From Candidatus Cloacimonadota bacterium (GTDB taxonomy: Bacteria > Cloacimonadota > Cloacimonadia > Cloacimonadales > TCS61), in the NCBI GenBank assembly GCA_018645365.1, contig JABGOP010000003.1, positions 3,967 through 67,966 of the forward strand: DNA of 64,000 bases. Direction: 5' to 3'. Numbering within the stretch: position 1 is the first letter of the stretch; each line of letters opens with the position of its first letter. Under the pieces are notes generated by a model. It was not told the origin of the DNA. It was given only the letters and a program-made list of their open reading frames with translations, and made no database searches. The position numbers and the translations under genes were made by a program. This document shows, piece after piece, positions 20,792 to 64,000 of this stretch.

Positions 20792-20794
20792 TGA

Positions 20795-21762: not shown

Positions 21763-21774
21763 AAATTTACCAAA

Positions 21775-23325: not shown

Positions 23326-23384
23326 CACACCTCCAAATATGTAAATTACTTATTTATTTCATTATTTTTGAGTCAATGAAAAAA

Positions 23385-30210: not shown

Positions 30211-30211
30211 T

Positions 30212-30769: not shown

Positions 30770-30781
30770 TCTACATCCCTC

Positions 30782-31627: not shown

Positions 31628-31633
31628 AATTCC

Positions 31634-32509: not shown

Positions 32510-32510
32510 T

Positions 32511-33677
32511 TTAACCTCTCGCAGCAGCCACGACTTTTTTGGCGCCATCGCTCATACTTTCTGCAGTTATGATATTTTGAATGTTTGCTTTTTTGAGAAT
32601 TTCGGATGCTTCTTTCGCATTTGTTCCATCTAATCGAATCACGAGTGGAACATTCACATTTATTTTTTGAGTCGCTTCCAAAATTCCATTCGCAATACGG
32701 TCACAACGCACAATGCCACCAAAAATATTCACAAAAATTGCTTTTACATTTGGGTCTTTCAAAATAATTTCGAAACTTTTGGCGACTGTTTCGGCTGTTG
32801 CTTTTCCACCTACATCAAGAAAATTTGCTGGCTCACCGTTTTCGTGTTTGACAATATCCATCGTGGACATCGCCAAACCAGCCCCATTCACCACACAACC
32901 TACATTTCCATCTAGTTTTACATAACTCAAACCATATTTATCAGCTTCTAATTCAGTTGGTTCTTCTTCGTCAAAATCACGCATTGCGGCAATTTCTTTG
33001 TGTTTGAACATCGCGTTATCATCGAATCCTACTTTTGCGTCGAGAGCGATAAATTCATCATCATCGGTTAATACAAGCGGATTAACTTCAATCATATTCG
33101 CATCTTTTTGCACATATATTTGGTATAAAGATGCGACTAAGTTGGTTACTTTTTTGGTTAAATCTGCGTTCAAACCAAAAGTTTTTGCAATCATTCTGCC
33201 GTGAAAACTGCGAAAACCGATAAGTGGATTTATTTGAATTTTAACGATTTTTTCTGGCATTTCTGCCGCCACTTTTTCGATGTCCATTCCACCTTCTGCC
33301 GATGCAATAATGACTGGCATTTCGGTAGCTCTATCTAAAAGGATACTCAAATAATATTCCTCTTTGATGTCCACCGCTTCCACAATATACACTTTTTGAA
33401 CCAATTTTCCTTCTGGTCCAGTTTGGTGCGTAACAAGATTCATACCCAAAATTTCGTGAGCATATTTTCCTACAGCTTCCAAGTCTTTGGCAAATTTCAC
33501 ACCACCGCCTTTACCTCTACCACCAGCGTGAATTTGTGCTTTCACTACCCAACTTTTTCCGCCAATTTCTTTGGCAGCGGAAATTGCATTTTCTGCATTT
33601 TCGATAATTTTCCCATTTTGAACTGGAATGCCAAAATCGGCAAAAATCTGCTTCGCTTGATATTCGTGAATATTCAT
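32511..33677 (-). CDS. sucC: Succinyl-CoA synthetase beta subunit
   Basis: [12 protein letters not shown], the ATP-grasp region and a C-terminal ligase-CoA domain (GGIVRCD). Confidence 0.96.
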
Positions 33678-33686
33678 ATTCCCTCT

Positions 33687-35357: not shown

Positions 35358-35369
35358 AATTCTCTCCGT

Positions 35370-36053
35370 TTAGGTAATTTTTATTTCACGATCGTAATAT
35401 ACTTTCGATAATTCATCACGATCCATTTTGTTTAATTTTTCGATATCAGCATCATATTTCCCGTTTTTAACTTCTTCAACCCGATTATCCAATTCTGGGC
35501 TTTTCTTCGCTAAATATTTGCCGTAAAGTCGGCGTGCTAAAATGCCATTATCATATTGAACTATTTCCGCTGGACAACGCATTGCACACAATCCACAACG
35601 AATACAATCGAACGAAATATTTGCCGCAGATTCCAAATCGCCACGAATTATGGACTGAATATAGTCCATCACTTGAATATCTTGTGGGCACGCTTTTGTG
35701 CAAGTATTGCAAGCGACACATCGGAAAACTGACGGAAATAAATTTGTGAAAGTTCCCACATCTGGCGTTAATGTTTCCAATTCATACAGCGGTTTTTCGG
35801 CTGGTACAAATGGAATTTGCGTAATCGCCATTCCTTCTGTAACAACGGTTTGACAGCCCAACCCACCTTTCAATTTGTAATCGCCTTTTTCACGATAAAC
35901 AGTAGCACAAGCACCACAATATCCCTCTCGACAGCCAACACCTCTTTTTAATTGAAATCCAGCATATTCGAGCGCCATAATAATCGTTGAACCTTCTGGT
36001 ACTTTGAAAAGTTCACCAGACAGATAAACAGTTACCATCTTCTTTTCCATCAT
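35370..36053 (-). CDS. Iron-sulfur subunit ([2Fe-2S] + two [4Fe-4S] motifs), SdhB/FrdB/TfrB-N-like
   Basis: CREGYCGAC...C (plant-type 2Fe-2S) followed by CVACNTCTKACP and CIRCGLCAMRCP. Confidence 0.8.
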   Translation of the reverse strand: MMEKKMVTVYLSGELFKVPEGSTIIMALEYAGFQLKRGVGCREGYCGACATVYREKGDYKLKGGLGCQTVVTEGMAITQIPFVPAEKPLYELETLTPDVGTFTNLFPSVFRCVACNTCTKACPQDIQVMDYIQSIIRGDLESAANISFDCIRCGLCAMRCPAEIVQYDNGILARRLYGKYLAKKSPELDNRVEEVKNGKYDADIEKLNKMDRDELSKVYYDREIKIT

Positions 36054-36949
36054 TTTGCTCCCTTTATTTTTTCATATTTTTTTAAAATTTCATTTGGATT
36101 TATGGCGTTAAATTCCAATCCCAAATCACTTTTTTCTAAACCTAATGCAATTCCCAAAAGTTGAGTAAAATAGAAAATTGGCATTGTTTGAAAATCAGAA
36201 TTTTTCACTGCCATCTCTTTTTGACGAACATCAAGGTTAAAGGCACAAAGTGGACAAGATGTAATGATTGCTTCCGCTCCATTTTCGCGTGCATCATTAA
36301 TGATACCACTCACTAATTTTTTCACTAAATCAATATTTTTGACAGTGTGATAACTGCCACAACAACGGCTTTTAGCATCCCATTCTACACTTTCTGCGCC
36401 CATTGCGGTTACTAATTTTTCCATAATTTGCGGTGCTTCTGGATCATCGATGCCAACCTCTTTCGGACGCAAAAGCATACAGCCATAATAGGACGCAACT
36501 TTTAGATTTTTAAGTGGATTTTCAATTTTTAATTTATCAAAACCCCATTCATCTAAAATGGAAAGAAAGTGAACAACATCGACGCTACCTGCATAATTTT
36601 CATCCTCGCGGTGCATAAAATCATTAATTTTCTGAAGTTCATCTGCATTTTCTTTCATTCTGTTATTCGTCAAACTAAGCGTATTGTAGCACATCGAACA
36701 GAGTGTAAGCAGTCGATTCTCGCTCACGGCTTCTGCCTTATTCATCTCTTGAACACGCAGGAAATTACGAACTGGTGCGAGGTGTTTCATTAAATCGTCA
36801 CTTGTCAAAGAAGAGACAACACCGCAGCAATTCCAACGCGGAATTTCCACAAATTCAATGCCAATTTTTTTGGCAGATGCAATTGCCGACATCTCAAAAT
36901 TTTTGGCTGTTGTTTTCATTGTGCAACCTGGAAAATATGGTATTTTCAT
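36050..36949 (-). CDS. HdrB/SdhE-like subunit with two CCG domains
   Basis: Two cysteine-rich CCG units: YFPGC...WNCCG...LCSMC and YYGC...RCCGS...SCPLC. No TM helix. Confidence 0.85.
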   Translation of the reverse strand: MKIPYFPGCTMKTTAKNFEMSAIASAKKIGIEFVEIPRWNCCGVVSSLTSDDLMKHLAPVRNFLRVQEMNKAEAVSENRLLTLCSMCYNTLSLTNNRMKENADELQKINDFMHREDENYAGSVDVVHFLSILDEWGFDKLKIENPLKNLKVASYYGCMLLRPKEVGIDDPEAPQIMEKLVTAMGAESVEWDAKSRCCGSYHTVKNIDLVKKLVSGIINDARENGAEAIITSCPLCAFNLDVRQKEMAVKNSDFQTMPIFYFTQLLGIALGLEKSDLGLEFNAINPNEILKKYEKIKGAK

Positions 36950-36965
36950 CTATTTTTCTCCTCTT

Positions 36966-37370
36966 CTATCCAGTAAATTTTCGGAAATTCCCAACGAGTG
37001 CAATTGTTGGTAATTTCACAGCTTCAGCTGCATCAATTTCTGCAATATCTATGTTATCAACCGCTTCGCGTAATTTAACTTGTCTAAGTGCTTCCGACAC
37101 TTTAGAAAGGTCGAGTTTACGCGGGCAACGAATAGTGCAAGTGTAACAAGAAGCACAAAGCCACATTGTTTGAGATTCCATCACCTCTTCTTGACCGAGC
37201 ATCACGAGACGCATTATTTGAGAAGGATTTATGTCCATCTCTTCCACAAATGGACAACCACCAGAGCAGGTTCCACATTGTTCACAAAGAGTAACTTGCT
37301 CGCCGCTCAAATCCATTATTTTTTCGAGAAATTTGGTTGTTTTGTCGGTAAATTTAATTTTTTTAGCCAT
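36966..37370 (-). CDS. HdrC-like 4Fe-4S dicluster protein
   Basis: CEQCGTCSGGCP and CASCYTCTIRCP in a 134-aa protein, matching the size and spacing of HdrC. Confidence 0.8.
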   Translation of the reverse strand: MAKKIKFTDKTTKFLEKIMDLSGEQVTLCEQCGTCSGGCPFVEEMDINPSQIMRLVMLGQEEVMESQTMWLCASCYTCTIRCPRKLDLSKVSEALRQVKLREAVDNIDIAEIDAAEAVKLPTIALVGNFRKFTG

Positions 37371-37372
37371 CG

Positions 37373-39754
37373 TTATCTCTCCAATTTAGCTTTTTGCTCA
37401 TCAGAAAGTGAGCCCAATTTATCTATCAATTCAGCAAGTTTGTTGATTTCAGAAATAAATTTCATCAAATCTTTTGCTTCAAATTGTGAAAAAATTAGTC
37501 TATCAGTTTCGATGTTTAGTTTCTTGAGTTTCTCGGCAACCACTTCCATATTTTTGCGAGTTACCGCATTTGCCCATTCGAAACGAGATGCTTTGACGGG
37601 ACTATCACCCAAAAATACAGCATCTGCACCTTTTGCAAAAGCATATTCGATCAAGCTTGGCGTAATTCTACTTACACTTGGCACTCTGAAAACGCGTGCG
37701 TAATTAGTGTATTTCATTTTACGCACACCGCACGCATCGATGAGGCGATAAGTAGTGTTGTCATCCGCAAAAACGATAATCCGTTTTTCATTATCTTTTT
37801 TGAATTTTAGTGCTGCTGAAACTTCTGCATAGAGTTGCTCATTTGTGTAATAATGCAAATCGAGAGCTTCCACGGGACAGCTTTCTAAACACGAGCCACA
37901 CCCCAAACAGAGTGCTTCGTTTACTTCCGCTTTTCCGTCTGCATTGATTGAAATCGCTTTTGGTGGACAAGCATTCAAACACTTTTGACAACCATCACAA
38001 ATATCTTGGTGAACGAACGCTAAAATTGGATCTATCGGCACTTCTTTTTGGGCCAAAGTTGCGATAACTCGTGCTGCTGCTGCACTTGCTTGTGTAACAG
38101 TATCTGGAATATCTTTCGGACCTTGTGCCACACCAGCTAAGAAAACGCCTTCCACTAATGTATCGACTGGCTTATATTTCGGATGAGCTTCTTTGAAAAA
38201 CCCATCATCAGATTTTGCTAATTTCAAAGTATCGGCGACTATTTCGGACGCTTTATTCGGCTCCAAACCGTTCGCCAAAACCACCAAATCAAAATCAGAT
38301 TCGATAATATTACGCGAGAGAGTATCTTCCACCGTTACGGTTACTTTTTTGTTAATTTTATTTTCCACAAAATGGGAAGGCTTGCCACGCACAAATTTGA
38401 TTCCCATATTCTGGGCACGTTTATAATATTCTTCGTAACCTTTGCCAAATGCTCTCAAGTCCGTGTAGAAAATATAGATATCTTTTTCTGGTTTTGCTTG
38501 TTTGAGGAGCGATGCTAATTTTACCGAATACATACAGCAAACGCGCGAGCAATATTCGTTTCCAATTTGTTCATCACGCGAGCCAACGCATTGCACAAAA
38601 GCAATTCTTTTCCCTATTTTTCGAGGTGGCTCCGCTTCCGAAATGTGATCGACAATGCGTTCCATCTCCAAAGCCGTAACCACATTTTTGAATTTACCAT
38701 AGCCAAAAACAGGTTTACGCATCGCATCAAAAATATCGTAACCTGTTGCCACCACAACGCTATCTACTGCTACATCAACGATTTTTTCTTCTTGCGTAAA
38801 ATCTATTGCTTGTTGAGGGCAAATATCCACACATTTTGAACACGAGTTATCGATAAAATGAGAGCAATTTTCAGTATCCAAAATATAGCGATATGGAATT
38901 GCGTGCGGTGCTGGAATGTAAATTGCTTTACGGTCGATGACACCTTGCTCCCAATAATTCGGCTGAGAAACTGGGCAAACTTCTGTACATTTATTGCAAA
39001 TCAAACATTGATCCATATCAATATCACTTTTTATGTAACGCGGATGTATTTTCACTTTTGCTTCAAAATGAAGACGATGTCCGGCAATGTCCAAAATTTC
39101 TGCATTCGTGTAAAGTGTGATGTTCGGATGGTCGGTAACTGCCGCCATTTTAGGTGAAATAATGCACGCTGCACAATCTTCTGTTGGAAAAGTTTTGGTA
39201 AGCACCGCCATCATCCCACCGAGAGTTGGCAATTTTTCTACAAGTGTAACTTTTTTGCCAGAATCAGCTAAATCGAGCGAAGTTTGAATACCAGCAATTC
39301 CACCACCAATAACGAGAATTTCATTACCAAGTTGCATTTTTTTCTCTTGTAAAGCAAAATCTAATTCTGCTTTTGAATGAGATGCATCGACAATATCTTT
39401 TGCTTTTTCGGTAGCAATTTCGGGGATATCTTTATGAATCCACGAACAGTGTTCACGCAGATTGGCAATCTCCAAAACATATGGATTCAAACCTGCTTTT
39501 TTCAAAGCTCCACGAAATGTTTTTTCGTGAAAATGAGGTGAACAAGAAGCGACAACTATTTTTTTTAATCCGTGTTTCTTTACATCGTCGATGATAAGTT
39601 GCTGTCCTTTTCCAGAACACATATGGCTATATTCTTGCACCAAAATATCATCATTATTTTTTTTCAGATGCTCTGTTACTTTTGGTAAATCTACCGTATT
39701 AGAGATGTTCCCGCCACACTGACAGAGATAAATTCCAGTCTTTTTAGTTTCCAT
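37373..39754 (-). CDS. HdrA-like FAD/Fe-S oxidoreductase fused to a C-terminal MvhD-like domain
   Basis: N-terminal Cys-rich domain (IYLCQCGGN...HMCSG...ASCSPH). FAD motif ILVIGGGIAGIQTSL. Inserted ferredoxin CLICNKCTEVCP/CSKCVDICP. C-terminal ferredoxin CDGCQKCLNACP/CLGCGSCLESCP. aa ~657-765 are MvhD-like (IIVFADDNTTY...RVPSVSRI...GADAVFLGDSP). Confidence 0.88.
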   Translation of the reverse strand: METKKTGIYLCQCGGNISNTVDLPKVTEHLKKNNDDILVQEYSHMCSGKGQQLIIDDVKKHGLKKIVVASCSPHFHEKTFRGALKKAGLNPYVLEIANLREHCSWIHKDIPEIATEKAKDIVDASHSKAELDFALQEKKMQLGNEILVIGGGIAGIQTSLDLADSGKKVTLVEKLPTLGGMMAVLTKTFPTEDCAACIISPKMAAVTDHPNITLYTNAEILDIAGHRLHFEAKVKIHPRYIKSDIDMDQCLICNKCTEVCPVSQPNYWEQGVIDRKAIYIPAPHAIPYRYILDTENCSHFIDNSCSKCVDICPQQAIDFTQEEKIVDVAVDSVVVATGYDIFDAMRKPVFGYGKFKNVVTALEMERIVDHISEAEPPRKIGKRIAFVQCVGSRDEQIGNEYCSRVCCMYSVKLASLLKQAKPEKDIYIFYTDLRAFGKGYEEYYKRAQNMGIKFVRGKPSHFVENKINKKVTVTVEDTLSRNIIESDFDLVVLANGLEPNKASEIVADTLKLAKSDDGFFKEAHPKYKPVDTLVEGVFLAGVAQGPKDIPDTVTQASAAAARVIATLAQKEVPIDPILAFVHQDICDGCQKCLNACPPKAISINADGKAEVNEALCLGCGSCLESCPVEALDLHYYTNEQLYAEVSAALKFKKDNEKRIIVFADDNTTYRLIDACGVRKMKYTNYARVFRVPSVSRITPSLIEYAFAKGADAVFLGDSPVKASRFEWANAVTRKNMEVVAEKLKKLNIETDRLIFSQFEAKDLMKFISEINKLAELIDKLGSLSDEQKAKLER

Positions 39755-39758
39755 ATTT

Positions 39759-40298
39759 TCACTCTTTATCTGCTAATTTAAAACCGATTTTTAATGCTTT
39801 TATATTCATTTCGTGAAATCTCGGTTTGATTGAATTTTTTACTGCTTTTTTCAAGGATGCTTCACTCACAACACCTGTTTTTCTCACCAAAAATCCGAGT
39901 GACATAATGTTTGTTGGAAGCACACTTCCTAATTTTTCCATTGCTATGTTTGTAAATGGAATTTCATAAATTGTAGAATCCATTACCGAAACATTTTTTA
40001 CATTTGAACTGTCTGCAATCAAAATTCCATCTGCTTTCAAGTCGTCACTATATTTATCGCAAGCTTCTTGAGTTAATGCCAAAAGCACATCAAAACTTGT
40101 CGCTTCTGGGAAATAGAATTTTTTATCACTAATTATCACATCAGCACGGCTAGCTCCACCGCGAGATTCGGGACCATAACTCTGTGTTTGTGTTACGATT
40201 GCATTGTCTATTACAGCGGCGCGTGCCAAAATAATCCCAGCTGTAATAAGCCCTTGTCCGCCGCTTCCACTGAGACGAATTTCATTCATTCCATTCAT
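39759..40298 (-). CDS. korC: 2-oxoacid:ferredoxin oxidoreductase gamma subunit
   Basis: LSGSGGQGLITAG at the N-terminus; 179 aa. Gene order is delta-alpha-beta-gamma. Confidence 0.88.
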   Translation of the reverse strand: MNGMNEIRLSGSGGQGLITAGIILARAAVIDNAIVTQTQSYGPESRGGASRADVIISDKKFYFPEATSFDVLLALTQEACDKYSDDLKADGILIADSSNVKNVSVMDSTIYEIPFTNIAMEKLGSVLPTNIMSLGFLVRKTGVVSEASLKKAVKNSIKPRFHEMNIKALKIGFKLADKE

Positions 40299-41143
40299 TA
40301 TTTTTCTCCATCTTCAGGCTTGAGAGAATCGATAAGTTTATCGTATACTGCTGTATATTCCGGCTTAATTTCTTTACGGAAAATACCGCGTTTAAGCTTG
40401 TTTTCTCTTTCATTCTCAGTGAGAGCTTCAAAAGATTTTACTGGAATAATGTTTTCTTTCATTTGACGCATCATCTTAGAAGCATCGCCTTTTTTATTCA
40501 ATTTTCCATAAATTACCGGACACGCGCTAATCACTTCTATTAAAGCAAATCCTTTGTGTTCCAAACCTTGCTTAATGAAAGATTGAGTTTCAACAGCGTG
40601 ATACGCCGAGGTTCTCGCTACAAAAGTTGCACCAGCACCCATGGCAAGTTCACAAATATCAAAAGTTGGGTCTAAATTTCCGTAAGGTGTAGTTGTGGCT
40701 TTATCACCAGTGGGGGTGGTTGGAGAATATTGCCCACCTGTCATTCCATAGATGTTGTTATTTATCAAAATAACTGTTAAATTTATGTTACGACGAGCGG
40801 CGTGAATAAAATGATTTCCGCCAATTGCAGTTGCATCACCATCACCAGTTACCACCATCACATCCATTTTTGGTTTATACATTTTGATACCTGTCGCATA
40901 CGCTATTGCTCTACCGTGAAGCGAATGTAATGTATTGAAATCCACATAAACTGGCATTCGACTGGAACATCCAATTCCAGAAACCATCGTTGTGTTTGTA
41001 CGACGCCATTCCAATTCACCAACTGCACGCATAATCGCACCCATCACGATGCCGTTACTACAACCCGGGCACCAAACATGAGGAAATTTTTTCTTCTGTC
41101 TCAAATATTTATTATGAATGTGTTTTTGTTTGATTTTTGACAT
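40298..41143 (-). CDS. korB: 2-oxoacid:ferredoxin oxidoreductase beta (TPP-binding) subunit
   Basis: VWCPGCSNG and the TPP motif VVTGDGDATAIGGNH...NNNIYGMTGGQ. Confidence 0.92.
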   Translation of the reverse strand: MSKIKQKHIHNKYLRQKKKFPHVWCPGCSNGIVMGAIMRAVGELEWRRTNTTMVSGIGCSSRMPVYVDFNTLHSLHGRAIAYATGIKMYKPKMDVMVVTGDGDATAIGGNHFIHAARRNINLTVILINNNIYGMTGGQYSPTTPTGDKATTTPYGNLDPTFDICELAMGAGATFVARTSAYHAVETQSFIKQGLEHKGFALIEVISACPVIYGKLNKKGDASKMMRQMKENIIPVKSFEALTENERENKLKRGIFRKEIKPEYTAVYDKLIDSLKPEDGEK

Positions 41144-41144
41144 T

Positions 41145-42308
41145 TTACCGAACCTCCTTCACTTTATTTACTATATCATCCGGCGTAATCAACTCTCCGT
41201 TACATTTCTGAATTGGAATAATTCTTTTTGTTTTACTTGTGTTTATGTTCCAAATACCACCCATCACTCTTTGAATTTCACCAAGCATCTGACCTTGGCT
41301 CAATTCCGGCACGATTATTGTGTTCACATCTTTGAAATATTCTTTAATTGCTTCATCTGGAAATGGCCAAATTGTGAGTGGACGAATCAGTCCAATTTTC
41401 TTGCCCGATTTGCGTAATTTTTCTACCGCTGTTTTAGCCGCACGAGCTGTAATTCCGGCTGCAAAAATAGCAGTTTTTGCGTCTTCCATTTGGAAATTTT
41501 CCACTTGAATTAAATCCTTCAAATGATGCGTGATTTTCTTACGCAGGCGATCCATCATAATTTTTACTTCATCAGCACGATTGGTTGGAAAACCGCAAGC
41601 ATCGTGTGCCAAACCAGTAACATGGAAACGATAACCCTCACCGTAACTTGCCATTGGATGGATATATTTTGGTTTGTCTTGATAATGTTTGTACCATTCT
41701 GGTGGAACCGTTGGTTTGATTCGATTGACGATTTTCACTTTTTCCAAATCAGGAAGCACCACTGCCTCACGCATATGACCTAAAACTTCATCGAGTAGTA
41801 AAACCACGCAAGTTCTATATTTTTCAGAAAGATTGACCGCCCGAATTGTCAGTTCATAAATTTCTTTCACAGAATCTGGATAGAGAACGATAGCTGGTGC
41901 ATCACCGTGATTTCCCCAACGCGACTGCATAATATCACTTTGTGAAGGTTTGGTCGGCAAACCAGTACTCGGTCCACCACGCATCACATTGACGACTACG
42001 CAAGGTGTTTCTGTTATTTTAGCAAAACCAATCCCTTCCATCATCAAAGAAAATCCGGGACCACTTGTTGCTGTCATCGCTTTTGCACCAGCAAGAGAAG
42101 CACCAATTATTGAAGAAATACCCGCAATTTCATCTTCCATTTGAATAAATTTTCCACCTATTTTGGGTAACTCTGCCGAAAGGATTTCTGCAATTTCGGT
42201 AGATGGAGTAATGGGATAGCCTCCAAAAAAATCTACTCCCGCATCGATAGCTCCACGGGCTACCGCTTCATTGCCTTGCATCAAAATCATTTTATCTGAA
42301 CTTTTCAT
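41145..42308 (-). CDS. korA: 2-oxoacid:ferredoxin oxidoreductase alpha subunit
   Basis: GNEAVARGAIDAGVDFFGGYPITPSTEI and MTATSGPGFSLM. 2-oxoglutarate specificity is inferred from the adjacent sucCD, not from sequence. Confidence 0.92.
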   Translation of the reverse strand: MKSSDKMILMQGNEAVARGAIDAGVDFFGGYPITPSTEIAEILSAELPKIGGKFIQMEDEIAGISSIIGASLAGAKAMTATSGPGFSLMMEGIGFAKITETPCVVVNVMRGGPSTGLPTKPSQSDIMQSRWGNHGDAPAIVLYPDSVKEIYELTIRAVNLSEKYRTCVVLLLDEVLGHMREAVVLPDLEKVKIVNRIKPTVPPEWYKHYQDKPKYIHPMASYGEGYRFHVTGLAHDACGFPTNRADEVKIMMDRLRKKITHHLKDLIQVENFQMEDAKTAIFAAGITARAAKTAVEKLRKSGKKIGLIRPLTIWPFPDEAIKEYFKDVNTIIVPELSQGQMLGEIQRVMGGIWNINTSKTKRIIPIQKCNGELITPDDIVNKVKEVR

Positions 42309-55942: not shown

Positions 55943-56361
55943 TTATCGTGAGTGCTTGTTTAACGGGAATAAATTGCAGGTATGATGGCAAGAATAACCT
56001 CAATGAAAAAATAATAAAACTCGTTCAAAATGGTGATGCAATTCCAATTTGCCCCGAACAACTTGGCGGTCTTACAACTCCGCGAACGCCAGCTGAAATT
56101 TCAGGCAATAAAGTCATTACTAGAAGTGGAAATGATGTCACTATTCAATTTCAAAAAGGTGCAATAGAAACTCTTAAAATAGCTAAATTATTGAATTGTA
56201 AAACTGCTATCTTTAAAGAAAATTCACCATCTTGCGGATCTAAAAATATTTATGATGGCACATTTAGCGACAATCTAATAAAAGGTGAAGGAATCACGAC
56301 GAAATTATTAAAACAAAATGGAATCGTCGTTTACAGCGAAAAAATAAAAAAAGCCACTTGA
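55939..56361 (+). CDS. DUF523 family protein (TudS-like)
   Basis: IIVSACLTGINCRYDG and ...ICPEQLGGL...SPSCG conserved Cys pattern. It overlaps the mutS stop by 4 nt. Confidence 0.8.
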   Translation: MIIVSACLTGINCRYDGKNNLNEKIIKLVQNGDAIPICPEQLGGLTTPRTPAEISGNKVITRSGNDVTIQFQKGAIETLKIAKLLNCKTAIFKENSPSCGSKNIYDGTFSDNLIKGEGITTKLLKQNGIVVYSEKIKKAT

Positions 56362-56375
56362 AGTGGCTTTTTAAA
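56347..56375. terminator. Bidirectional hairpin terminator between convergent genes
   Basis: aaaaagccact-tga-agtggcttttt. The stem spans the DUF523 stop codon and is flanked by an A run and a T run. It lies 6 nt beyond the stop of the minus-strand 31-codon ORF. Confidence 0.75.
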
Positions 56376-56774: not shown

Positions 56775-57024
56775 ATGATTAACTCCTTTTTAATTTTTTC
56801 AACGGTGGACTTTGTTTAAATTGGGGTTTTATCTGTCAAGAGCTTTTTGCGTAACTTGTATATTTTTCTAACTTTACACAGTTTCATATATCTTTTCACA
56901 TTTGGTTTTGAATGAATTCCATCCAACCCTCAAAATGGTATTTTCAACAGTTATCGCCATTTTATCATTGACAATAAAGTGGAACATTTATTTAAGTAAA
57001 CTTTTAAAAATCGGGAGAAATATT

Positions 57025-58050
57025 ATGAATAAAATTAAGTTCGGACTCATCGGATGCGGACGAATTTCCGCGAAGCATTTTGAAGCAATTGCAGAAATTG
57101 AAAACGCTAATATCATTTGCTGTGCTGACATTATCGCAGAACGCGCCAACGACGCGGCAGAAAAATATCAAATCCCAAAATTTTATACTGATTATAAAAA
57201 AATGCTCGATAATGAAAAAATCGATTGCGTAATTATCTGCACACCAAGCGGAATGCATCCAGAAATGGGAATCGAAACTACCAAAAGAAAAATAAATGTT
57301 GTTACCGAAAAACCAATGGCAATTGATTTAGAATCTGCTGACGCGCTCATCGACGCGTGTGAAGAAAATGGTGTTCGCCTTTTTGTAGTCAAGCAAAATC
57401 GACTAAACTCCACTATTCAAATGTTAAAAAAAGCAATAGATAAAAATCGTTTTGGAAAACTATTTAGTGCTAACATTACCGTTCGGTGGACACGTCCACA
57501 GAGTTATTATGATTTGGCATCGTGGCGTGGAACCTGGAAATATGACGGCGGTGCTTTCATGAATCAGGCTTCACACTATTTCGATTTGATTCAATGGATG
57601 ATGGGACCAATCGAATCGGTAATGTCTTTTACTGCCACAATGGACAAACAAATCGAAGCTGAAGATCAAGGTGGTGGATTGATTAAATTCAAAAATGGAG
57701 CCATTGGAGTTGCCGATATTTCAATGAACATTTTCCCGAAAAATTATGAAGGTTCAATTACTATTATGGGAAAAAACGGAACCGTCAAAATCGGTGGAAT
57801 TGCCGTTAATAAAATCGAACATTGGGAATTCAAAGAATATGACGATGACGACAAATTAGTGGAAAAAGTTTCCACCAATCCAACCAGTGTTTACGGCTTT
57901 GGGCATCAAGCCTATTTGCAAAATGTAGTGGATGTTTTGCACGGAATTGCAGTGCCAAAAACAGATGGTAAAAGCGGTAGAAAATCACTCGAATTAATTT
58001 TGGCGATGTATGAATCTGCTCGCACTGGCAAATTAGTGAAATTATTATAA
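57025..58050 (+). CDS. Gfo/Idh/MocA-family NAD(P)-dependent oxidoreductase
   Basis: Rossmann N-terminus KFGLIGCGRISAKH with the following EKP motif (VVTEKPMA). The ATG at 57025 follows GGGAGA; the 41-codon upstream extension (TTG at 56902) is unlikely to be real. Confidence 0.88.
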   Translation: MNKIKFGLIGCGRISAKHFEAIAEIENANIICCADIIAERANDAAEKYQIPKFYTDYKKMLDNEKIDCVIICTPSGMHPEMGIETTKRKINVVTEKPMAIDLESADALIDACEENGVRLFVVKQNRLNSTIQMLKKAIDKNRFGKLFSANITVRWTRPQSYYDLASWRGTWKYDGGAFMNQASHYFDLIQWMMGPIESVMSFTATMDKQIEAEDQGGGLIKFKNGAIGVADISMNIFPKNYEGSITIMGKNGTVKIGGIAVNKIEHWEFKEYDDDDKLVEKVSTNPTSVYGFGHQAYLQNVVDVLHGIAVPKTDGKSGRKSLELILAMYESARTGKLVKLL

Positions 58051-58062
58051 AAAGGAGATAAA

Positions 58063-58950
58063 TTGTTAGTTCAAGAATATTTTAAATCACGAACCGATCT
58101 GTTCGAAGCATCAATGAAAATCTTTATGGATCCAATCGATACTTATCCCAAAAAATTAAATGAAGCGATGCATTACAGCATTTTTAATAGAGGCAAAAGA
58201 TTGCGTCCAATTCTATTTTTAGCAACTTATGAGATGCTTATTGGCAGGAAAAACTTAAAGCGTTTAGACCGTTTGCTTCCAGCAGCCTGTGCACTCGAAA
58301 TGGTTCACACAGCTTCGCTTATTCACGATGATTTGCCGAGTGCAGATAACTCTGATGAACGAAGAGGGCTGCCGAGTTGTCATAAAAAATTTGGAGACGC
58401 AACTGCAATTTTAGCCGGCGATGCACTCATTACCAAAGCAATCGAAACTCTAACAAAGCTGAAAAGCAAAAAAGAAGCAATTGATGCTATTTCCATTCTT
58501 ACACATGCTGTTTCTACGCACGGCATGATCGGTGGACAGGCAGTTGACATCGTTTCTGCAAAGAAAAAAGCAAACAAAAATACGCTTCACTATATTCATT
58601 TGAAAAAAACTGGTTCACTTCTGCTTGCTTCAACAGAATTAGCTTGTATTTTCGCAAAAACAGAAGAAAACACACGCATCAAACTTGGGAATTTCGCATT
58701 AAATCTTGGACTTGCCTACCAAATTGTTGATGATATTTTGGATGAAATTGGCAGTTTTGAAGTTTTAGGCAAAGAACCAGGTGGCGATTCAAAAAATATG
58801 AAAGCAACCTATCCATCTGTTTTTGGATTGGAAACTTCAAAAGATAAAGCAGAAAAACTTTTGCGAGATTGCTATAATATCGTCAAAAATATGGAACACA
58901 ATGAAATTATGATTGAGTTTATCAATATGGTGAAAGAGCGGCTTCCATAA
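58063..58950 (+). CDS. Short-chain (E)-polyprenyl diphosphate synthase (FPP/GGPP synthase type)
   Basis: First Asp-rich motif LIHDDLPSADNSDERRG and second QIVDDILD. The TTG start lies 5 nt after AAGGAG. Confidence 0.9.
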   Translation: MLVQEYFKSRTDLFEASMKIFMDPIDTYPKKLNEAMHYSIFNRGKRLRPILFLATYEMLIGRKNLKRLDRLLPAACALEMVHTASLIHDDLPSADNSDERRGLPSCHKKFGDATAILAGDALITKAIETLTKLKSKKEAIDAISILTHAVSTHGMIGGQAVDIVSAKKKANKNTLHYIHLKKTGSLLLASTELACIFAKTEENTRIKLGNFALNLGLAYQIVDDILDEIGSFEVLGKEPGGDSKNMKATYPSVFGLETSKDKAEKLLRDCYNIVKNMEHNEIMIEFINMVKERLP

Positions 58951-58951
58951 A

Positions 58952-59776
58952 ATGTCATTTTTGAAAATTACGCGACCATTAAATTGCTTATTTGTCGCAA
59001 TCACTATAGTTTTTGGAGCAGTGATTGGAACAGAAAACATAGATTTACTGCCAATTATTTTCGCCACGATTTCTGCTACACTAATAGCGGCAGCAGGTTA
59101 TGTTATCAACGATTATTTTGATTTTGCCATTGATAAAATTAACCGACCAAACCGTGTTCTGCCAGCCGGCAAAATAACACCAAAAAGTGCTTATATTTAC
59201 AGCATTACCCTCTTTACTTTTGGTATTTTTTTCTCGTTTTTCACAAATAATATTTACTGCATTTTTTTGGCATTTATCAACGCAATTATTCTATTTTTGT
59301 ACGCAAAATATTTCAAACTAACACCTTTTTTTGGCAATTTAATCGTGGCATATATCGCAACAAGCACCTTTCTTTACGGTGCTTTTAGTAACGCAAACTT
59401 GGTAAATATTTGGATGATTGCCACTTTCGCATTTTTGCTCACATTAATCCGAGAATTAATCAAAGATTGCGAAGATATCGAAGGTGATGCGAAACTGAAA
59501 GCAAAAACCTTGGCTCTCATTTTTGGTATAAAAAAAACGATTCAAATAGCTTTCATCGTGGCAACTATAATGATTTTGTTCGTGCTATTTTTGTGGTGGC
59601 AAGCTTATATTTCTAACTCTACGATTATCCTTTTGAACGCATTTGTCATTCTGCCGACACTCCTATTCTTCGCATCTTTAAAACAAAATTTTGAGAAAAA
59701 CAATCTTGCTCGAATTTCAAAATTCGTCAAAATAGATATGCTGATTTTACTAATAATTTTAGGATTGAAAATATGA
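58952..59776 (+). CDS. UbiA-family prenyltransferase, digeranylgeranylglyceryl phosphate synthase (DGGGPS)-like
   Basis: About 8 TM helices. NDYFDFAIDKINRPNRVLPAGKI and KDCEDIEGD...KTLALIFG match the DGGGPS-type versions of the two UbiA Asp-rich motifs (from memory). It is directly coupled to GGGPS. Confidence 0.8.
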   Translation: MSFLKITRPLNCLFVAITIVFGAVIGTENIDLLPIIFATISATLIAAAGYVINDYFDFAIDKINRPNRVLPAGKITPKSAYIYSITLFTFGIFFSFFTNNIYCIFLAFINAIILFLYAKYFKLTPFFGNLIVAYIATSTFLYGAFSNANLVNIWMIATFAFLLTLIRELIKDCEDIEGDAKLKAKTLALIFGIKKTIQIAFIVATIMILFVLFLWWQAYISNSTIILLNAFVILPTLLFFASLKQNFEKNNLARISKFVKIDMLILLIILGLKI

Positions 59777-60519
59777 AAACTTATGAAAAACTAATCGCAC
59801 TTAAAAAAGAAAGAGCCAATTACTTTTGTTTGATAGATCCTGACAAATTGGATGAAATTCAAGCGGCAGAAACTGCTCTAAAATGTGAAGAAAACGGTGC
59901 TGACGGCATTTTAGTAGGTGGTAGCATTATGCTCAAAAACAACTTCGAGCAAAATCTCAAAATCATCAAAGAAAATGTGAAAATTCCAGTTTTAATTTTT
60001 CCTGGAATTTTCAATTTCGTCTCACCATTTGCAGATGCTCTTTTGCTTCTCAGCGTCATCACAAGTCGCAATCCACAAATGCTCATTGGCGAACAAGTGC
60101 GTGCGGCACCGCTCATCAAACACCACAATTTGGAAACCATCGGAACTGGCTACATGCTGATAGAATCTGGCGAAACAACATCCGTTCATTTTATGAGTGG
60201 AAGCATGCCACTACCGCGCACTAAAAATGACATTGCCGTAGCACACGCTTTGGCTGGGCAATATCTCGGTATGAAAATCATCTATTTAGACGCTGGAAGT
60301 GGTGCAAAATACCCCGTTCCAGATGAGATGATTACGGCAATTCGCCAAAATGTTGACTTGCCAATTATTCTCGGTGGTGGAATTAATACACCAGAAATAG
60401 CTGCTCAGAAAGCAAAAGCTGGGGCAGATTTTATCGTAACTGGAAATATCCTGGAAAAAAATAATAATCCACAATTGATTCGAGAATTCGCCGATGCCAT
60501 TCATAGCGTAAAAAAATAA
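59773..60519 (+). CDS. pcrB: Geranylgeranylglyceryl phosphate synthase (GGGPS/PcrB family)
   Basis: TIM-barrel PcrB/GGGPS motifs GADGILVGGS, LLLSVITSRNPQMLIGEQV, IYLDAGSGA, ILGGGI and FIVTGN. It overlaps the DGGGPS-like gene by 4 nt. Confidence 0.88.
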   Translation: MKTYEKLIALKKERANYFCLIDPDKLDEIQAAETALKCEENGADGILVGGSIMLKNNFEQNLKIIKENVKIPVLIFPGIFNFVSPFADALLLLSVITSRNPQMLIGEQVRAAPLIKHHNLETIGTGYMLIESGETTSVHFMSGSMPLPRTKNDIAVAHALAGQYLGMKIIYLDAGSGAKYPVPDEMITAIRQNVDLPIILGGGINTPEIAAQKAKAGADFIVTGNILEKNNNPQLIREFADAIHSVKK

Positions 60520-61244
60520 TGATCGACATTCACACCCACATTTTACCTGAAATTGATGACGGCTCAAAAAGTTTGGAAAATTCCATTGAGCAAGTAAAAT
60601 TCATGGCGAAAAATGGCGTCACCGATATTGTCTGCACACCTCATTTTATTCGGAATTATTGGCACAACACAGCCGAAATTATTTCTGAAAAATTTAAACA
60701 ACTTCAAAAAGCAGTCAAAGATGAAAACATCAAACTACATCAAGGTTGTGAAGTTTATCTTGATGAAAATTCACTACAAACAATTCAAAATCAAAAACTA
60801 AATATCGGCAACACAAATTATGTTTTAGTGGAAACAATGATGACTGAATTTCCCGTCAATTTATTCGACATTTTGTATCAACTTGTAAAAGCAAATTTCA
60901 AACCAATCCTCGCTCATCCCGAACGATATTTACCCATTATTGCAAATTTTGAATTGGCAGAAAATTTTATGTTTCGCGATATTTATTTACAAGTAAATGC
61001 AGGTAGTCTTTTTGGGAAATATGGCAAAAAATCACAAAAAACCGCTTTCAAGATGATCGATTATGGATTTGCACATTTCGTAGCGTCGGATAATCATTGT
61101 CGTAACTTTCACTACCCTTTGCCCGCCGCCTTTGAAGTAATTTCAAACCAATTTGATGAATATACCGCAAATTTATTAACCCAAGTAAATCCCGCAAAAA
61201 TGTTACAAAATGAGAACATACCTATTTTTTATTTGGAAAAATAA
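60519..61244 (+). CDS. PHP-family metal-dependent phosphoesterase (CpsB/YwqE-like)
   Basis: MIDIHTHILPEIDDGS, TPHF, AHPERY and SDNH histidine/aspartate metal ligand pattern. Confidence 0.85.
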   Translation: MIDIHTHILPEIDDGSKSLENSIEQVKFMAKNGVTDIVCTPHFIRNYWHNTAEIISEKFKQLQKAVKDENIKLHQGCEVYLDENSLQTIQNQKLNIGNTNYVLVETMMTEFPVNLFDILYQLVKANFKPILAHPERYLPIIANFELAENFMFRDIYLQVNAGSLFGKYGKKSQKTAFKMIDYGFAHFVASDNHCRNFHYPLPAAFEVISNQFDEYTANLLTQVNPAKMLQNENIPIFYLEK

Positions 61245-62209
61245 TGAAAATTCTGATAACTGGAATTAGCGGTTTTATCGGCAAAAATGTTGCTCGAAAT
61301 TTATTGAAAAAAAATGTTCAAATTACTGCAATTGTCAGACCAAACACCAATTTTAAACGAATAGCAGAATTTGAAAACAAGGTAAAATTTATCGAAATAG
61401 ATTTAACTAATATAGCCACATTGCGTAACTTTCTTTCCGAAAATGCTTTTGTCCAAATCATTCACATTGGAGCAATTCGCGGTGGTAGAAAATTCACAAA
61501 ACAGCAATATTTTGATGCGAATGTAAATGCGACCGAACAACTAATTATCAACGCAAAAAAACACAATTCAAAATTCATTTTTTGCTCTTCGGTAGGAGTT
61601 TTCGGAGCAATCCCAAAAGAATTACCCGCAAATAATTTCACCGAAAGACAAGAAGACAACTATTATCATTTCACCAAGATTTACGCTGAAAAAATCATCC
61701 AAAAGCACGTCCTAAATGGGTTGAGTGCCGCAATTGTACGCCCTGCAATAACTTACGGCGAAGGTGATTTTGGTTTCCCTTTCACACTCACAAAACTCGT
61801 AGATAAAAATTTGATGTTTCTACCAAATCACGAAGTTAAGATTCACCTCACAAATATCGAGCTAATCGTGCAAGCTTTTAACAAGCTTTCCGAAATTGAC
61901 TTTAAATCTGGAACTGCTTACAATGTAGCAGATTTACATCCCGTGAAATTGACAGAAATTGTTGATTTTATCAATCAAGAATTGCATCAAAAAAAATATT
62001 CGCGTCATAAAATTATTAATGTTAAATTTTTCGATTTTGGAGAAAAAATTGCCCGATTTCTAAAAAATGAACTTTGGGTTTCTCGTTTTGAATTAATTTC
62101 CAAAAGTTGGTATTATAACACTCAAAACAGTTACACCAATCTCGGTTTGAAACACATTGAAACGATTCCAAATTTCAAAATTGTCACAAATTGGTACAAA
62201 GGTTTGTAA
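61244..62209 (+). CDS. NAD-dependent epimerase/dehydratase-family SDR
   Basis: KILITGISGFIGKN Rossmann motif and a YxxxK-like segment (YHFTKIYAEK). Confidence 0.85.
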   Translation: MKILITGISGFIGKNVARNLLKKNVQITAIVRPNTNFKRIAEFENKVKFIEIDLTNIATLRNFLSENAFVQIIHIGAIRGGRKFTKQQYFDANVNATEQLIINAKKHNSKFIFCSSVGVFGAIPKELPANNFTERQEDNYYHFTKIYAEKIIQKHVLNGLSAAIVRPAITYGEGDFGFPFTLTKLVDKNLMFLPNHEVKIHLTNIELIVQAFNKLSEIDFKSGTAYNVADLHPVKLTEIVDFINQELHQKKYSRHKIINVKFFDFGEKIARFLKNELWVSRFELISKSWYYNTQNSYTNLGLKHIETIPNFKIVTNWYKGL

Positions 62210-63043
62210 ATGGCAATTCCGATTTTAAAAACTTGGAAAAACTATTTTTCAAATTACGATGAAGGCTTAGGCTCATCCTACGAACGCATTATTTTGAACA
62301 ATAAAATTGTTGAAATTTGTGCAAAATTTAGAGTAAAATCTGTTTTGGAAGCCCCAAGTTTTGGCTTTACTGGACTTTCCGGTATCAACAGTTTACAACT
62401 CGCAAAAAGCGGTTGTGAAATCACTCTGTTCGACCATGATAAAGAGCGAATTGAATTAATAAAATCTATTTGGAATGAGGTAAATTATCCTCTTAAAATT
62501 GAATTTTCAAAAAACTATAATTCACTTCCATTTACAGATAATCATTTTGATTTCAGTTGGAATTTTTCAGCACTTTGGTTTGTTGATAATTTACAAAAAT
62601 TTCTCTCTGAATTAACTCGTACTACCGAAAAAGCAATTTTAATCTGCGTTCCAAATCGGACTGGAATCGGCTATCTTTCCCAAAAATTCCTTGGTAAACA
62701 AGATTTAAAAAAATTATTGAAAGAAAAAAATATTTTACCTAAAAATATCCAAAATGAAATGCACAAACTAAATTGGGAGCTAGTAGAAACAAATTACATT
62801 GATGTGCCTTGGTGGCCAGATATTGGCATGCCAAAAGATAAATTTGCTAAAATTTTAAAACTCGATTGGCTTCTCAAAAAAGAAAAAAGAAAACCAATTT
62901 CCATTATGGATTTTTACAAAAATAAAGACAATGAATTTCCTGAAAAAATGATGAAACATTTTTGGTTTGAAAAATTTGCACCAAAAATAATAAAAAAAAT
63001 TTGGGCACATCATAAATATTTTCTATTTGTTCCCAAAAAATAA
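62210..63043 (+). CDS. Putative class I SAM-dependent methyltransferase
   Basis: Motif-I-like VLEAPSFGFTG, acidic LFDHD after beta-2 and FDFSWNFSALWFV (motif II/III-like). The assignment is weak. Confidence 0.5.
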   Translation: MAIPILKTWKNYFSNYDEGLGSSYERIILNNKIVEICAKFRVKSVLEAPSFGFTGLSGINSLQLAKSGCEITLFDHDKERIELIKSIWNEVNYPLKIEFSKNYNSLPFTDNHFDFSWNFSALWFVDNLQKFLSELTRTTEKAILICVPNRTGIGYLSQKFLGKQDLKKLLKEKNILPKNIQNEMHKLNWELVETNYIDVPWWPDIGMPKDKFAKILKLDWLLKKEKRKPISIMDFYKNKDNEFPEKMMKHFWFEKFAPKIIKKIWAHHKYFLFVPKK

Positions 63044-63059
63044 AAAATAGGAGGAAATA

Positions 63060-63254
63060 ATGAAAACCAAACTTTTTTTGAGATTTTTCTTATCATTCGC
63101 AGTAATCTATTTTCTTGTAATTAAATTTGTCCCATTCCTGAAAATAGAGAAACTCTTAAGTTACTTAATTATTCAAACTTTAATTATCAGTGTTTTTTAC
63201 GCTATTTTCATGACTTGGTTCTCACTTCGCAAAAAAAAGAATGAAGAAAAATAG
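63060..63254 (+). CDS. Hypothetical small two-helix membrane protein
   Basis: 64 aa with a strong AGGAGG Shine-Dalgarno and two hydrophobic helices. Confidence 0.5.
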   Translation: MKTKLFLRFFLSFAVIYFLVIKFVPFLKIEKLLSYLIIQTLIISVFYAIFMTWFSLRKKKNEEK

Positions 63255-64000
63255 CATCAATTGGATTGTCGGTATAATTCTCGGAGCCACATTCTTAATG
63301 GTGTGGCTCCACCTTATCGACTGGCAAGAATTTCTACAATATTTCCAAAAATTCGATTTAACGGTAATGTTATTTTTTTCGATTTTTTATGTTTTCGCCT
63401 ATTTTTTACGAGCGTTACGTTGGAAAATCATTCTCAATCCGATTTACAAAATGAACATTGGGGAAAGTTTTGCTATTTTCATGAGTGGTCTTTTAGTAAA
63501 TTACATCATTCCAATTCGAGCGGGTGAAGTGGCAAAATCAGTCATTCTCAAAACCAGAAATCATCTCAAAATTTCACAAACATTACCAACAGTTTTTATC
63601 GATAAAATCACTGATCTTTTCCCAATTTTACTAATTATGCTACTTATTCCTCTCGTTTCAATAAAGCTAAATTTCACACTTTATTTCATCATTCTACTAC
63701 TCTTTATTATTTTATTATTTTTTGTTTGGTTTCTATATTTTGCGATAAATCATCAGAAAAAAGCATTCAAATTCCTTCACCTATTTTTGAAAATAATACC
63801 CTTCAAATATCGTGCAAAACTTGAAGTTTTTTTTGCTAATTTTGTGGATGGAATGGGAATTTTAAATAGAAGATGGAAAGCAATAACGCTCATTTATCTG
63901 CTCACATTTTGGGCGGTAATTTCAGAAGCACTCTACATTTTTATGGTATTCAAAGCATTTGGTGCAGAAATTTCCTATCTCAAAATTCTTTTCGGCTACA
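63241..64000 (+). CDS. Flippase-like membrane protein (LPG-synthase-TM / UPF0104 family), 3' end outside the window
   Basis: Frame-1 ORF from the ATG at 63241, open to the window end, so it is absent from the ORF track. Hand translation gives MKKNSINWIVGIILGATFLMVWL...LRALRWKIIL...IPIRAGEVAKS..., the family's R-x-x-RW and P-x-R-x-GE signatures. Multiple TM helices. Confidence 0.7.
   Translation, partial: MKKNSINWIVGIILGATFLMVWLHLIDWQEFLQYFQKFDLTVMLFFSIFYVFAYFLRALRWKIILNPIYKMNIGESFAIFMSGLLVNYIIPIRAGEVAKSVILKTRNHLKISQTLPTVFIDKITDLFPILLIMLLIPLVSIKLNFTLYFIILLLFIILLFFVWFLYFAINHQKKAFKFLHLFLKIIPFKYRAKLEVFFANFVDGMGILNRRWKAITLIYLLTFWAVISEALYIFMVFKAFGAEISYLKILFGY

Follow-up and report, generated by a model that had tools for sequence, protein, structure and literature searches.

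Which lipid do the archaeal-type ether-lipid genes of the Cloacimonadota serve to make, and what is contributed to it by the genes that accompany them? The question is raised by a 64-kb stretch of Candidatus Cloacimonadota DNA (hereafter the window), in which a map of the open reading frames (ORFs), covering 54-64 kb, displays nine consecutive genes, designated A to I and all lying on the plus strand, that include those for a polyprenyl synthase (B), a UbiA-family protein resembling digeranylgeranylglyceryl phosphate synthase (DGGGPS; C) and a predicted geranylgeranylglyceryl phosphate synthase (GGGPS) of the PcrB family (D). The B-C-D core is already known: Cloacimonetes were reported to encode co-localised GGGPS, DGGGPS and polyprenyl synthase genes, the GGGPS activity of a Cloacimonetes homologue, using geranylgeranyl diphosphate (GGPP) and glycerol-1-phosphate (G1P), was demonstrated in vitro, and the DGGGPS homologue supported archaeal-type lipid formation in Escherichia coli (Villanueva et al. 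2021, ISME J, PMC7852524). As far as its main text and supplementary text go, that paper makes no mention of the neighbouring genes for a PHP phosphatase (E), a short-chain dehydrogenase/reductase (SDR; F), a methyltransferase (G) and a UPF0104 protein (I), referred to below as accessory genes.

We propose that this unit would make and then process an archaeal-type isoprenoid glycerol ether lipid, with the accessory genes acting after GGGPS, a reading which, in our estimation, stands about an even chance of being right. B would make a C20 prenyl diphosphate, D would couple it to glycerol phosphate, and C could add a second chain. The phosphate of the GGGPS product, be it geranylgeranylglyceryl phosphate (GGGP) or its digeranylgeranyl counterpart (DGGGP), would be stripped by E, the freed polar end, or a sugar on it, would be tailored by F and G, and the product would be carried across the membrane by H, a small membrane ORF, and I. 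Since the accessory genes would process and export the lipid, the end product may not be an archaeal-style phospholipid; should the reading be right, it would be a dephosphorylated and tailored ether lipid or lipid carrier, and not a CDP-activated archaeal-type phospholipid.

The GGGPS core and the phosphatase gene that follows it

Gene B (58063..58950, plus strand, with a 1-nt gap to C) was matched by the Pfam model polyprenyl_synt (193 bits) and by the NCBIfam FPPsyn subfamily (285 bits, above the cut-off of 275), and carries Ala-Ser at positions -5/-4 before its first DDxxD motif. The residues at these two positions are the basis of a chain-length rule, from which the C20 reading of B is taken, B being a short-chain trans-prenyl diphosphate synthase and probably a GGPP synthase. 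Gene C (58952..59776, plus strand, overlapping D by 4 nt) reaches 129 bits with Pfam UbiA, and its best NCBIfam matches are the DGGGPS equivalogs, at 212 bits, under the cut-off of 296. As for gene D (59773..60519, plus strand, overlapping E by 1 nt), its scores with Pfam PcrB (147 bits, cut-off 23.9), NCBIfam TIGR01769 GGGP (216.9 bits, cut-off 161.55) and NF003198 (281.8 bits, cut-off 247) identify it, by curated cut-offs, as a GGGPS of the PcrB family with a predicted activity. The protein is 100% identical to that of a Candidatus Cloacimonetes metagenome-assembled genome (MAG), and its best 120 relatives listed are all at least 66% identical, those named by source coming from Cloacimonetes/Cloacimonadota except for one Candidatus Tenebribacter entry.

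The junctions between genes A and I are tight, every gap measuring at most 16 nt and the remaining junctions being overlaps or abutments. Besides, a terminator scan of the region returned 5 terminator-like sites, to be compared with 5.9 expected from shuffled sequences, and thus no convincing terminator inside the array, and an Rfam scan gave no family match in the array region. The nine genes most likely constitute one transcription unit. The families of genes A to G and I were confirmed by both Pfam and NCBIfam, and H matches none. In all these respects (gene order, coordinates, strand, junctions and the lack of a detectable terminator), the description given in a first-pass annotation of this DNA is borne out.

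Gene E (60519..61244, plus strand, overlapping F by 1 nt) gives a full-length match of 176 bits to Pfam CpsB_CapC and aligns with the Bacillus subtilis phosphatase YwqE (PDB 3QY6) with an E-value of 1e-30. The residues of the trinuclear metal site, H5, H7, D14, H42, E80, E108, H136, D194 and H196, as well as R139, are all present in E, and each of these ten metal-binding or catalytic positions is kept in 73-74 of 74 GGGPS-linked copies, a single E-to-D exchange being the only deviation noted. Because the ten YwqE/CpsB residues are conserved in this way, E is predicted to be a catalytically intact PHP-fold phosphoesterase of the CpsB/YwqE family.

The link between this phosphatase and GGGPS was followed in two sets of loci, namely 63 loci, nearly all from Cloacimonadota, recovered by a GGGPS scan with one genome per species, and 80 further loci, with 47-75% identity, recovered from metagenomes with a GGGPS alignment (loci are given below by their L numbers). 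E was scored as adjacent when a CpsB-like PHP gene, encoded on the strand of GGGPS, lay 0-138 nt downstream. On this definition, E directly follows GGGPS in 65 of the 67 loci whose GGGPS is at least 55% identical to that of the window. More precisely, E is adjacent in 2/2 loci at 90-100% GGGPS identity, where C is adjacent in 2/2 as well, and in 40/41 at 70-90% (C in 41/41). The phosphatase is then found in 17/17 loci at 60-70% (C in 11/15) and in 6/7 at 55-60%, where C is adjacent in 1/8; from 50 to 55% the figures fall to 5/29 for E and 0/28 for C, and below 50% to 0/22 and 0/29, respectively. These counts by identity bin make the phosphatase a steadier partner of GGGPS than DGGGPS within this GGGPS clade.

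Moreover, the D-E pair stands in three gene backbones, HU-(A)-B-C-D-E, PriA-B-C-D-E and AlaRS-D-E-SIS (AlaRS, alanyl-tRNA synthetase), the lineages with the last of these spanning 40-63% GC and including a KSB1 MAG. It is this recurrence, together with the overlap of start and stop codons at the D/E and E/F junctions, that links the accessory genes to the ether-lipid genes. The E proteins of the three backbone groups share about 31% mutual identity, which equals their identity with YwqE. Either the D-E adjacency survived a very deep divergence, or CpsB-like genes came to stand beside GGGPS on more than one occasion. A distinct subfamily of GGGPS-linked PHP proteins was also considered and set aside, pairwise identities being uninformative on this point for the same reason. 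The dephosphorylation of GGGP or DGGGP by E, as the first-pass annotation had suggested, is the most plausible reading of this gene.

A separate observation concerns the GGGPS loci of other phyla, in which a RecA-RecX-AlaRS-GGGPS-SIS_2 block is conserved (L080-L148; e.g. L132:927-1526 and L077:9559-10197). A GmhA-like SIS-domain gene, resembling those of sugar-phosphate isomerases, lies directly downstream of GGGPS in 33 of 67 PHP-less loci, nearly always on the same strand, and where the PHP gene is present in the AlaRS backbone (at least in L075 and L077), it sits between GGGPS and the SIS gene.

When the proteins of the window were searched against the relatives with tblastn, the order A-B-C-D-E-F-G-(H)-I-MoxR was found in essentially every locus long enough to display it, down to about 57% GGGPS identity. 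The comparison of gene order around GGGPS that had been suggested as a check thus speaks for conservation across the Cloacimonadota, the D-E pair being found in other backbones as well. Some loci are reduced or rearranged, and it is these that are the most telling: L055-L058 keep D-E-F-G-MoxR alone; in L061, D-E-F-G is followed by an 81-aa ORF, a DUF362/ferredoxin gene, I and a further methyltransferase; and in the PriA clade (L071-L073, with B-C-D-E), F-G-I lie within 3.5 kb, after an inserted gene on the opposite strand.

The proposed tailoring pair and the membrane proteins

Gene F (61244..62209, plus strand, abutting G) is matched by Pfam Epimerase (104 bits) and reaches no specific NCBIfam equivalog model. 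An N-terminal GxxGxxG motif and an S...YxxxK motif are present, and the AlphaFold2 model, with a predicted local distance difference test (pLDDT) score of 96, was aligned by Foldseek to SDRs modifying nucleoside diphosphate (NDP)-sugars with TM-scores of about 0.7-0.8. F is accordingly modelled as a two-domain extended SDR with the fold of NDP-sugar epimerases and dehydratases. Gene G (62210..63043, plus strand), separated from H by a 16-nt gap containing AGGAGG, encodes a putative, divergent class I SAM methyltransferase with a weak Pfam Methyltransf_11 match (36.5 bits) and a basic and aromatic C-terminal extension. Its family is narrow, with 295 clusters at E<=1e-3 among 1.84 billion representatives, and its close homologues come almost all from Cloacimonadota, along with two from Calditrichota. 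With the AlphaFold2 model of G (pLDDT 90), Foldseek returned generic small-molecule class I methyltransferases alone, at a TM-score of about 0.5, and no clue to the substrate.

The association of these two proteins extends beyond the phylum. Several representatives of the G family are SDR::methyltransferase fusions found in other phyla, one of which (P0246) shares 35% identity with F and 42% with G; in one Asgard archaeal protein, the methyltransferase is instead fused to DUF362. In the same line, an extended SDR lies beside, near or fused to a G-type methyltransferase in seven of the eight contexts that were examined beyond the core clade, and only the Asgard locus L153 has no SDR. These outside contexts usually hold family 2 glycosyltransferases (GT2), a radical-SAM/SPASM enzyme and an exporter (Wzx, ABC or UPF0104). 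In two of them, L149 (Calditrichota) and L151, F-G stand with a short-chain polyprenyl synthase and UbiA, once also with a geranylgeranyl-reductase-like gene; the UbiA genes of L149 and L151 gave no significant match to DGGGPS models. These contexts suggest that F and G would form a coupled tailoring pair, which recurs in isoprenoid-lipid and in lipid-linked-glycan settings.

Within the relatives of the window, the methyltransferase at the position of G is only 26-32% identical to G in L013, L040, L052, L059 and L060, and L038 (10474-11484), L042 and L049 display a weak F-like match about 2 kb from G, the interval holding a second extended-SDR gene in L038. With a divergent methyltransferase in five of these relatives and an added or exchanged SDR in the other three, the tailoring genes are seen to vary more than the core.

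Gene H (63060..63254, plus strand), preceded by AGGAGG and overlapping I by 14 nt, is a 64-aa membrane ORF with two hydrophobic helices and a Lys-rich tail; of the 45 loci in which both G and I are present, about 16 have a similar hydrophobic two-helix ORF of 53-70 aa in the interval. Gene I (63241..64000, plus strand) is cut by the window end and measures 333 aa in the full-length copies of L001 and L002. It is matched by Pfam LPG_synthase_TM (106 bits) and by the flippase-like NCBIfam model TIGR00374 (70.7 bits, cut-off 43.2), and at full length it is a stand-alone membrane domain, with no aminoacyl-phosphatidylglycerol synthase or glycosyltransferase domain. I thereby matches the N-terminal flippase part of MprF and the AglD-type membrane domain, but differs from MprF, which has a C-terminal aminoacyl-phosphatidylglycerol synthase domain. 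I accompanies F-G in the PriA clade and in L150, and accompanies the G-type methyltransferase and DUF362 in the Asgard locus L153. That this UPF0104 protein would translocate the product, as first put forward in the earlier annotation, is the most plausible reading of its presence here.

Some further arrangements around the UPF0104 gene can be mentioned. In Atabeyarchaeia of the Asgard group (L153, CP147779.1, 7755-13305), a radical-SAM/SPASM gene, the G-type methyltransferase::DUF362 fusion, a DUF362/ferredoxin gene and the UPF0104 gene stand together, and in the Cloacimonadota locus L061 (11385-13748) the same DUF362/ferredoxin-UPF0104 pairing follows G. A DUF6754 protein is encoded directly after the UPF0104 gene in one member of the PriA-type clade (L073:13246-14361) and beyond an inverted UPF0104-SDR block in another (L072:15495-16601), its place after UPF0104 being taken by the MoxR ATPase in the core clade.

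Competing readings and the source of glycerol-1-phosphate

Several points weigh against the proposed pathway. All the steps that come after D and C are drawn from gene context. In sequence, E is typical of the CpsB/YwqE family of tyrosine phosphatases, no closer to the other GGGPS-linked copies than to YwqE, and L037 has no E after its GGGPS. The MutS, 2-thiouracil desulfurase, HU and MoxR genes, which are unrelated to the pathway, are just as collinear as the array, and much of the synteny within the Cloacimonadota could therefore result from inheritance alone; synteny within the phylum is, on its own, weak evidence. In the Cloacimonadota-like locus L150 (7250-12843), the order B-E-F-G-I-MoxR is found with no GGGPS or UbiA gene within 20 kb. 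The fold of F is that of NDP-sugar-modifying enzymes, and F-G stand among GT2 genes in other phyla; the substrate of F may be a sugar, yet the operon has no glycosyltransferase. Finally, the co-expression in E. coli of the Cloacimonetes GGGPS and DGGGPS, with the accessory genes absent, was read as formation of archaeal-type membrane lipids (PMC7852524).

Many of these points are shared by a first alternative, which we regard as rather unlikely, in which the accessory genes would be unrelated neighbours: E would be an ordinary CpsB tyrosine phosphatase, A, F, G and I would be left over from a cell-surface glycan pathway, and the gene order would be kept by lineage. The families of E, A and F are indeed best known from polysaccharide biosynthesis, the F-G homologues elsewhere lie in GT2-rich clusters, the E copies form no distinct subfamily by identity, and both the equal synteny of MutS, HU and MoxR and the retention of E-F-G-I in L150 fit such a view. 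However, no bacterial tyrosine kinase (BY-kinase), Wzx/Wzy or glycosyltransferase gene was found in the window or in the 10 kb downstream of it, the D-E pair recurs in unrelated backbones that include the RecA-RecX-AlaRS housekeeping context, the D/E and E/F start and stop codons overlap, and F-G accompany a polyprenyl synthase and UbiA in two other lineages. The alternative already raised in the first-pass annotation, that the genes from 60519 onward belong to a polysaccharide cluster, loses ground on the same evidence, and the capsule genes that might have been expected just downstream are missing from the 10 kb past the window end. Comparative evidence thus supports the view that the accessory genes are partners of the ether-lipid genes and not an adjacent capsule cluster.

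A second alternative, which seems improbable to us, ties the accessory genes to the prenyl synthase instead of GGGPS: E would trim GGPP to the monophosphate or the alcohol, F-G would tailor a sugar carried on this polyprenyl phosphate, and I would flip it, in a manner similar to Arn/Gtr or dolichol systems. This would suit L150, in which B is followed directly by E-F-G-I with neither C nor D, the sugar-related fold of F, and the contexts outside the phylum, where F-G are found with GT2 and GT-C (PMT_2) glycosyltransferases, Wzx/ABC exporters, a polyprenyl synthase and a geranylgeranyl-reductase-like gene. The relationship of A to a UDP-sugar dehydrogenase, described below, would also be in agreement with it. 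On the other hand, D-E occur without a nearby prenyl synthase in the AlaRS-type lineages, L055-L058 have D-E-F-G without B, and the operon of the Cloacimonadota is devoid of a glycosyltransferase. To our knowledge, the prenyl diphosphate phosphatases that have been described belong to other families (BacA, PAP2).

The remaining alternatives bear on the supply of G1P and bring in gene A (57025..58050, plus strand, with a 12-nt gap to B), which encodes an oxidoreductase with the N- and C-terminal Pfam domains GFO_IDH_MocA. Its start is ambiguous, as longer ORFs begin at 56902 or 56935; the ATG at 57025 best fits the alignment with WlbA. Over residues 3-340, with about 55% identity at full length, A matches PDB 3Q2K (E-value 9.8e-109) and 3Q2I (1.1e-107), which we take to be the WlbA UDP-GlcNAcA 3-dehydrogenases of Bordetella pertussis and Chromobacterium violaceum. 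Structures of WlbA exist, and the role of the enzyme in the ManNAc3NAcA pathway was described (PMC10622841). A is missing at this position in L015, L017, L021 and L022, where HU is followed straight by B, and in the PriA-type clade. A is a close relative of the WlbA/WbpB-type nucleotide-sugar 3-dehydrogenases, with which it aligns end to end; the pathway partners WbpA, WbpE, WbpD and WbpI were not found within the window. Genes of such a WbpA/E/D/I-type pathway can be scattered in other FCB-group bacteria. A would be either a passenger or the supplier of a sugar head group.

The question of G1P arises since the Cloacimonetes MAGs lack egsA/araM; carS was reported to be missing as well (PMC7852524). 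In keeping with the first-pass annotation, the gene tables of matching contigs and Pfam revealed no Fe-ADH-type G1P dehydrogenase (EgsA/AraM) in the 64-kb window. A third alternative would have this gap filled by the accessory genes, A or F reducing dihydroxyacetone phosphate (DHAP) or E freeing G1P from a glycerophosphodiester such as the phosphatidylglycerol head group; we consider it very unlikely. In its favour, E accompanies GGGPS more constantly than the other genes do. PHP enzymes, besides, have a trinuclear metal site of a type that phosphodiesterases use as well. Nevertheless, the closeness of A to WlbA-type enzymes (E 1e-109) and its absence from several relatives make it unlikely as a DHAP reductase, and F, for which the same role had been suggested, is disfavoured because it is paired or fused with the methyltransferase in taxa and clusters where no GGGPS lies nearby. 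As regards E, every residue of the CpsB/YwqE monoesterase site is kept, and in the lineages without E no other enzyme for G1P is seen next to GGGPS. None of the accessory genes is thus likely to be a good candidate for making G1P.

Weakest of all, and in our view highly improbable, is the notion of a self-sufficient GGGPS-PHP module in which a PHP phosphodiesterase would free sn-glycerol-1-phosphate from phosphatidylglycerol or another glycerophosphodiester for use by GGGPS, a notion which, if true, would provide the long-sought G1P source of bacteria that have archaeal-type ether lipids and no G1P dehydrogenase.

A complementary distribution of E and a G1P dehydrogenase was also looked for and rejected, the E-less GGGPS loci being neighboured by RecA, RecX, AlaRS and SIS_2 instead. 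As a side observation, gpsA, coding for the bacterial NAD-dependent glycerol-3-phosphate (G3P) dehydrogenase, is present at 8537-9523 of the window, followed by a nucleoside diphosphate kinase gene, and on this account the organism would make G3P by the usual route.

Surroundings of the array and relation to known systems

Upstream, the array region is limited by a bidirectional hairpin terminator (56348..56372, no strand assigned) with an 11-bp stem and T-runs on both strands, the sole strong hairpin of the scanned region, which closes the unit of the MutS and 2-thiouracil-desulfurase genes as well as the convergent HU gene. Between the divergent HU gene and gene A, the ORF map leaves about 250 nt of intergenic sequence (56775..57024, plus strand), in which promoter-like matches are found at consensus level only and which is probably the promoter region of the array. 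Past the window end, as read from identical contigs, come a MoxR ATPase gene and a TPR protein gene, then the first strong hairpin, beyond which lie convergent HD, FIST and amidohydrolase genes.

Elsewhere in the window, genes for a YegS/DAGK-type lipid kinase, a TP_methylase-domain protein and an 806-aa YfhO-like membrane protein stand in a row on the minus strand (24674-28666), and these lipid or envelope genes are not linked to the array. A single 797-aa ORF at 30-2423 encodes a phosphoglucose isomerase with a C-terminally fused Macro domain. A large block of anaerobic central metabolism occupies 19676-23328 and 28759-42308 on the minus strand; it comprises a sodium pump set of the methylmalonyl-CoA/oxaloacetate decarboxylase type (OAD_beta, biotin carrier, carboxyltransferase), malic enzyme, fumarase, succinyl-CoA ligase and a fumarate-reductase-like flavoprotein, along with Hdr/FlpD-like iron-sulfur proteins and a 2-oxoacid:ferredoxin oxidoreductase.

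Returning to the proposed ether-lipid pathway, its closest counterpart is found in B. subtilis, in which the product of PcrB loses its phosphate, is then acetylated by YvoF and serves as a carrier proposed to cross the membrane; genes for a phosphatase (YvoE) and a membrane protein (YvoD) likewise lie in the yvoF operon, and the dephosphorylation step was attributed to a non-specific phosphatase (PMC9179154, PMC12345273). Both schemes would share a prenylglyceryl phosphate made by a PcrB-family enzyme, followed by dephosphorylation, modification at the freed hydroxyls and, as proposed, flipping to the outer leaflet. They differ in that the chain is C35 in Bacillus and probably C20 in Cloacimonadota, that Bacillus has no second prenylation step whereas the Cloacimonadota array has the DGGGPS-like C, and that the modifier is the acetyltransferase YvoF in the former, while the array of the latter has an SDR and a methyltransferase instead of an acetyltransferase. 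The phosphatase itself is of the PHP fold and tightly linked to GGGPS in Cloacimonadota, in contrast to the non-specific one of Bacillus. The best-supported reading is that the Cloacimonadota pathway would be a new variant of this Bacillus-type scheme.

Two other systems are close in terms of genes and differ in context or in implied product. The locus described by Villanueva et al., who amplified a PriA-B-C-D arrangement (PMC7852524), belongs to the same phylum and has the same three core genes, and this PriA-B-C-D order was recovered here in L071-L073; the steadier partnership of GGGPS with the phosphatase than with DGGGPS suggests, however, a dephosphorylated product. CpsB/YwqE, for its part, shares with E a full-length family match and all the catalytic residues, but is usually found with a BY-kinase and capsule genes, whereas E lies beside GGGPS.

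The phosphatase step that follows PcrB/GGGPS has no specific enzyme assigned to it in any bacterium, and the present locus supplies candidates that can be tested. The oxidoreductases of the cluster being unlikely sources of G1P, that lead can be set aside. The Cloacimonadota are the main cited example of bacteria that might have a mixed archaeal and bacterial membrane and hold a key place in the debate on the "lipid divide". If the proposed reading is true, their genes may make a natural product akin to the acetylated heptaprenylglycerol of Bacillus rather than an archaeal-style membrane phospholipid, which would alter how evolutionary arguments and biomarker studies interpret them.

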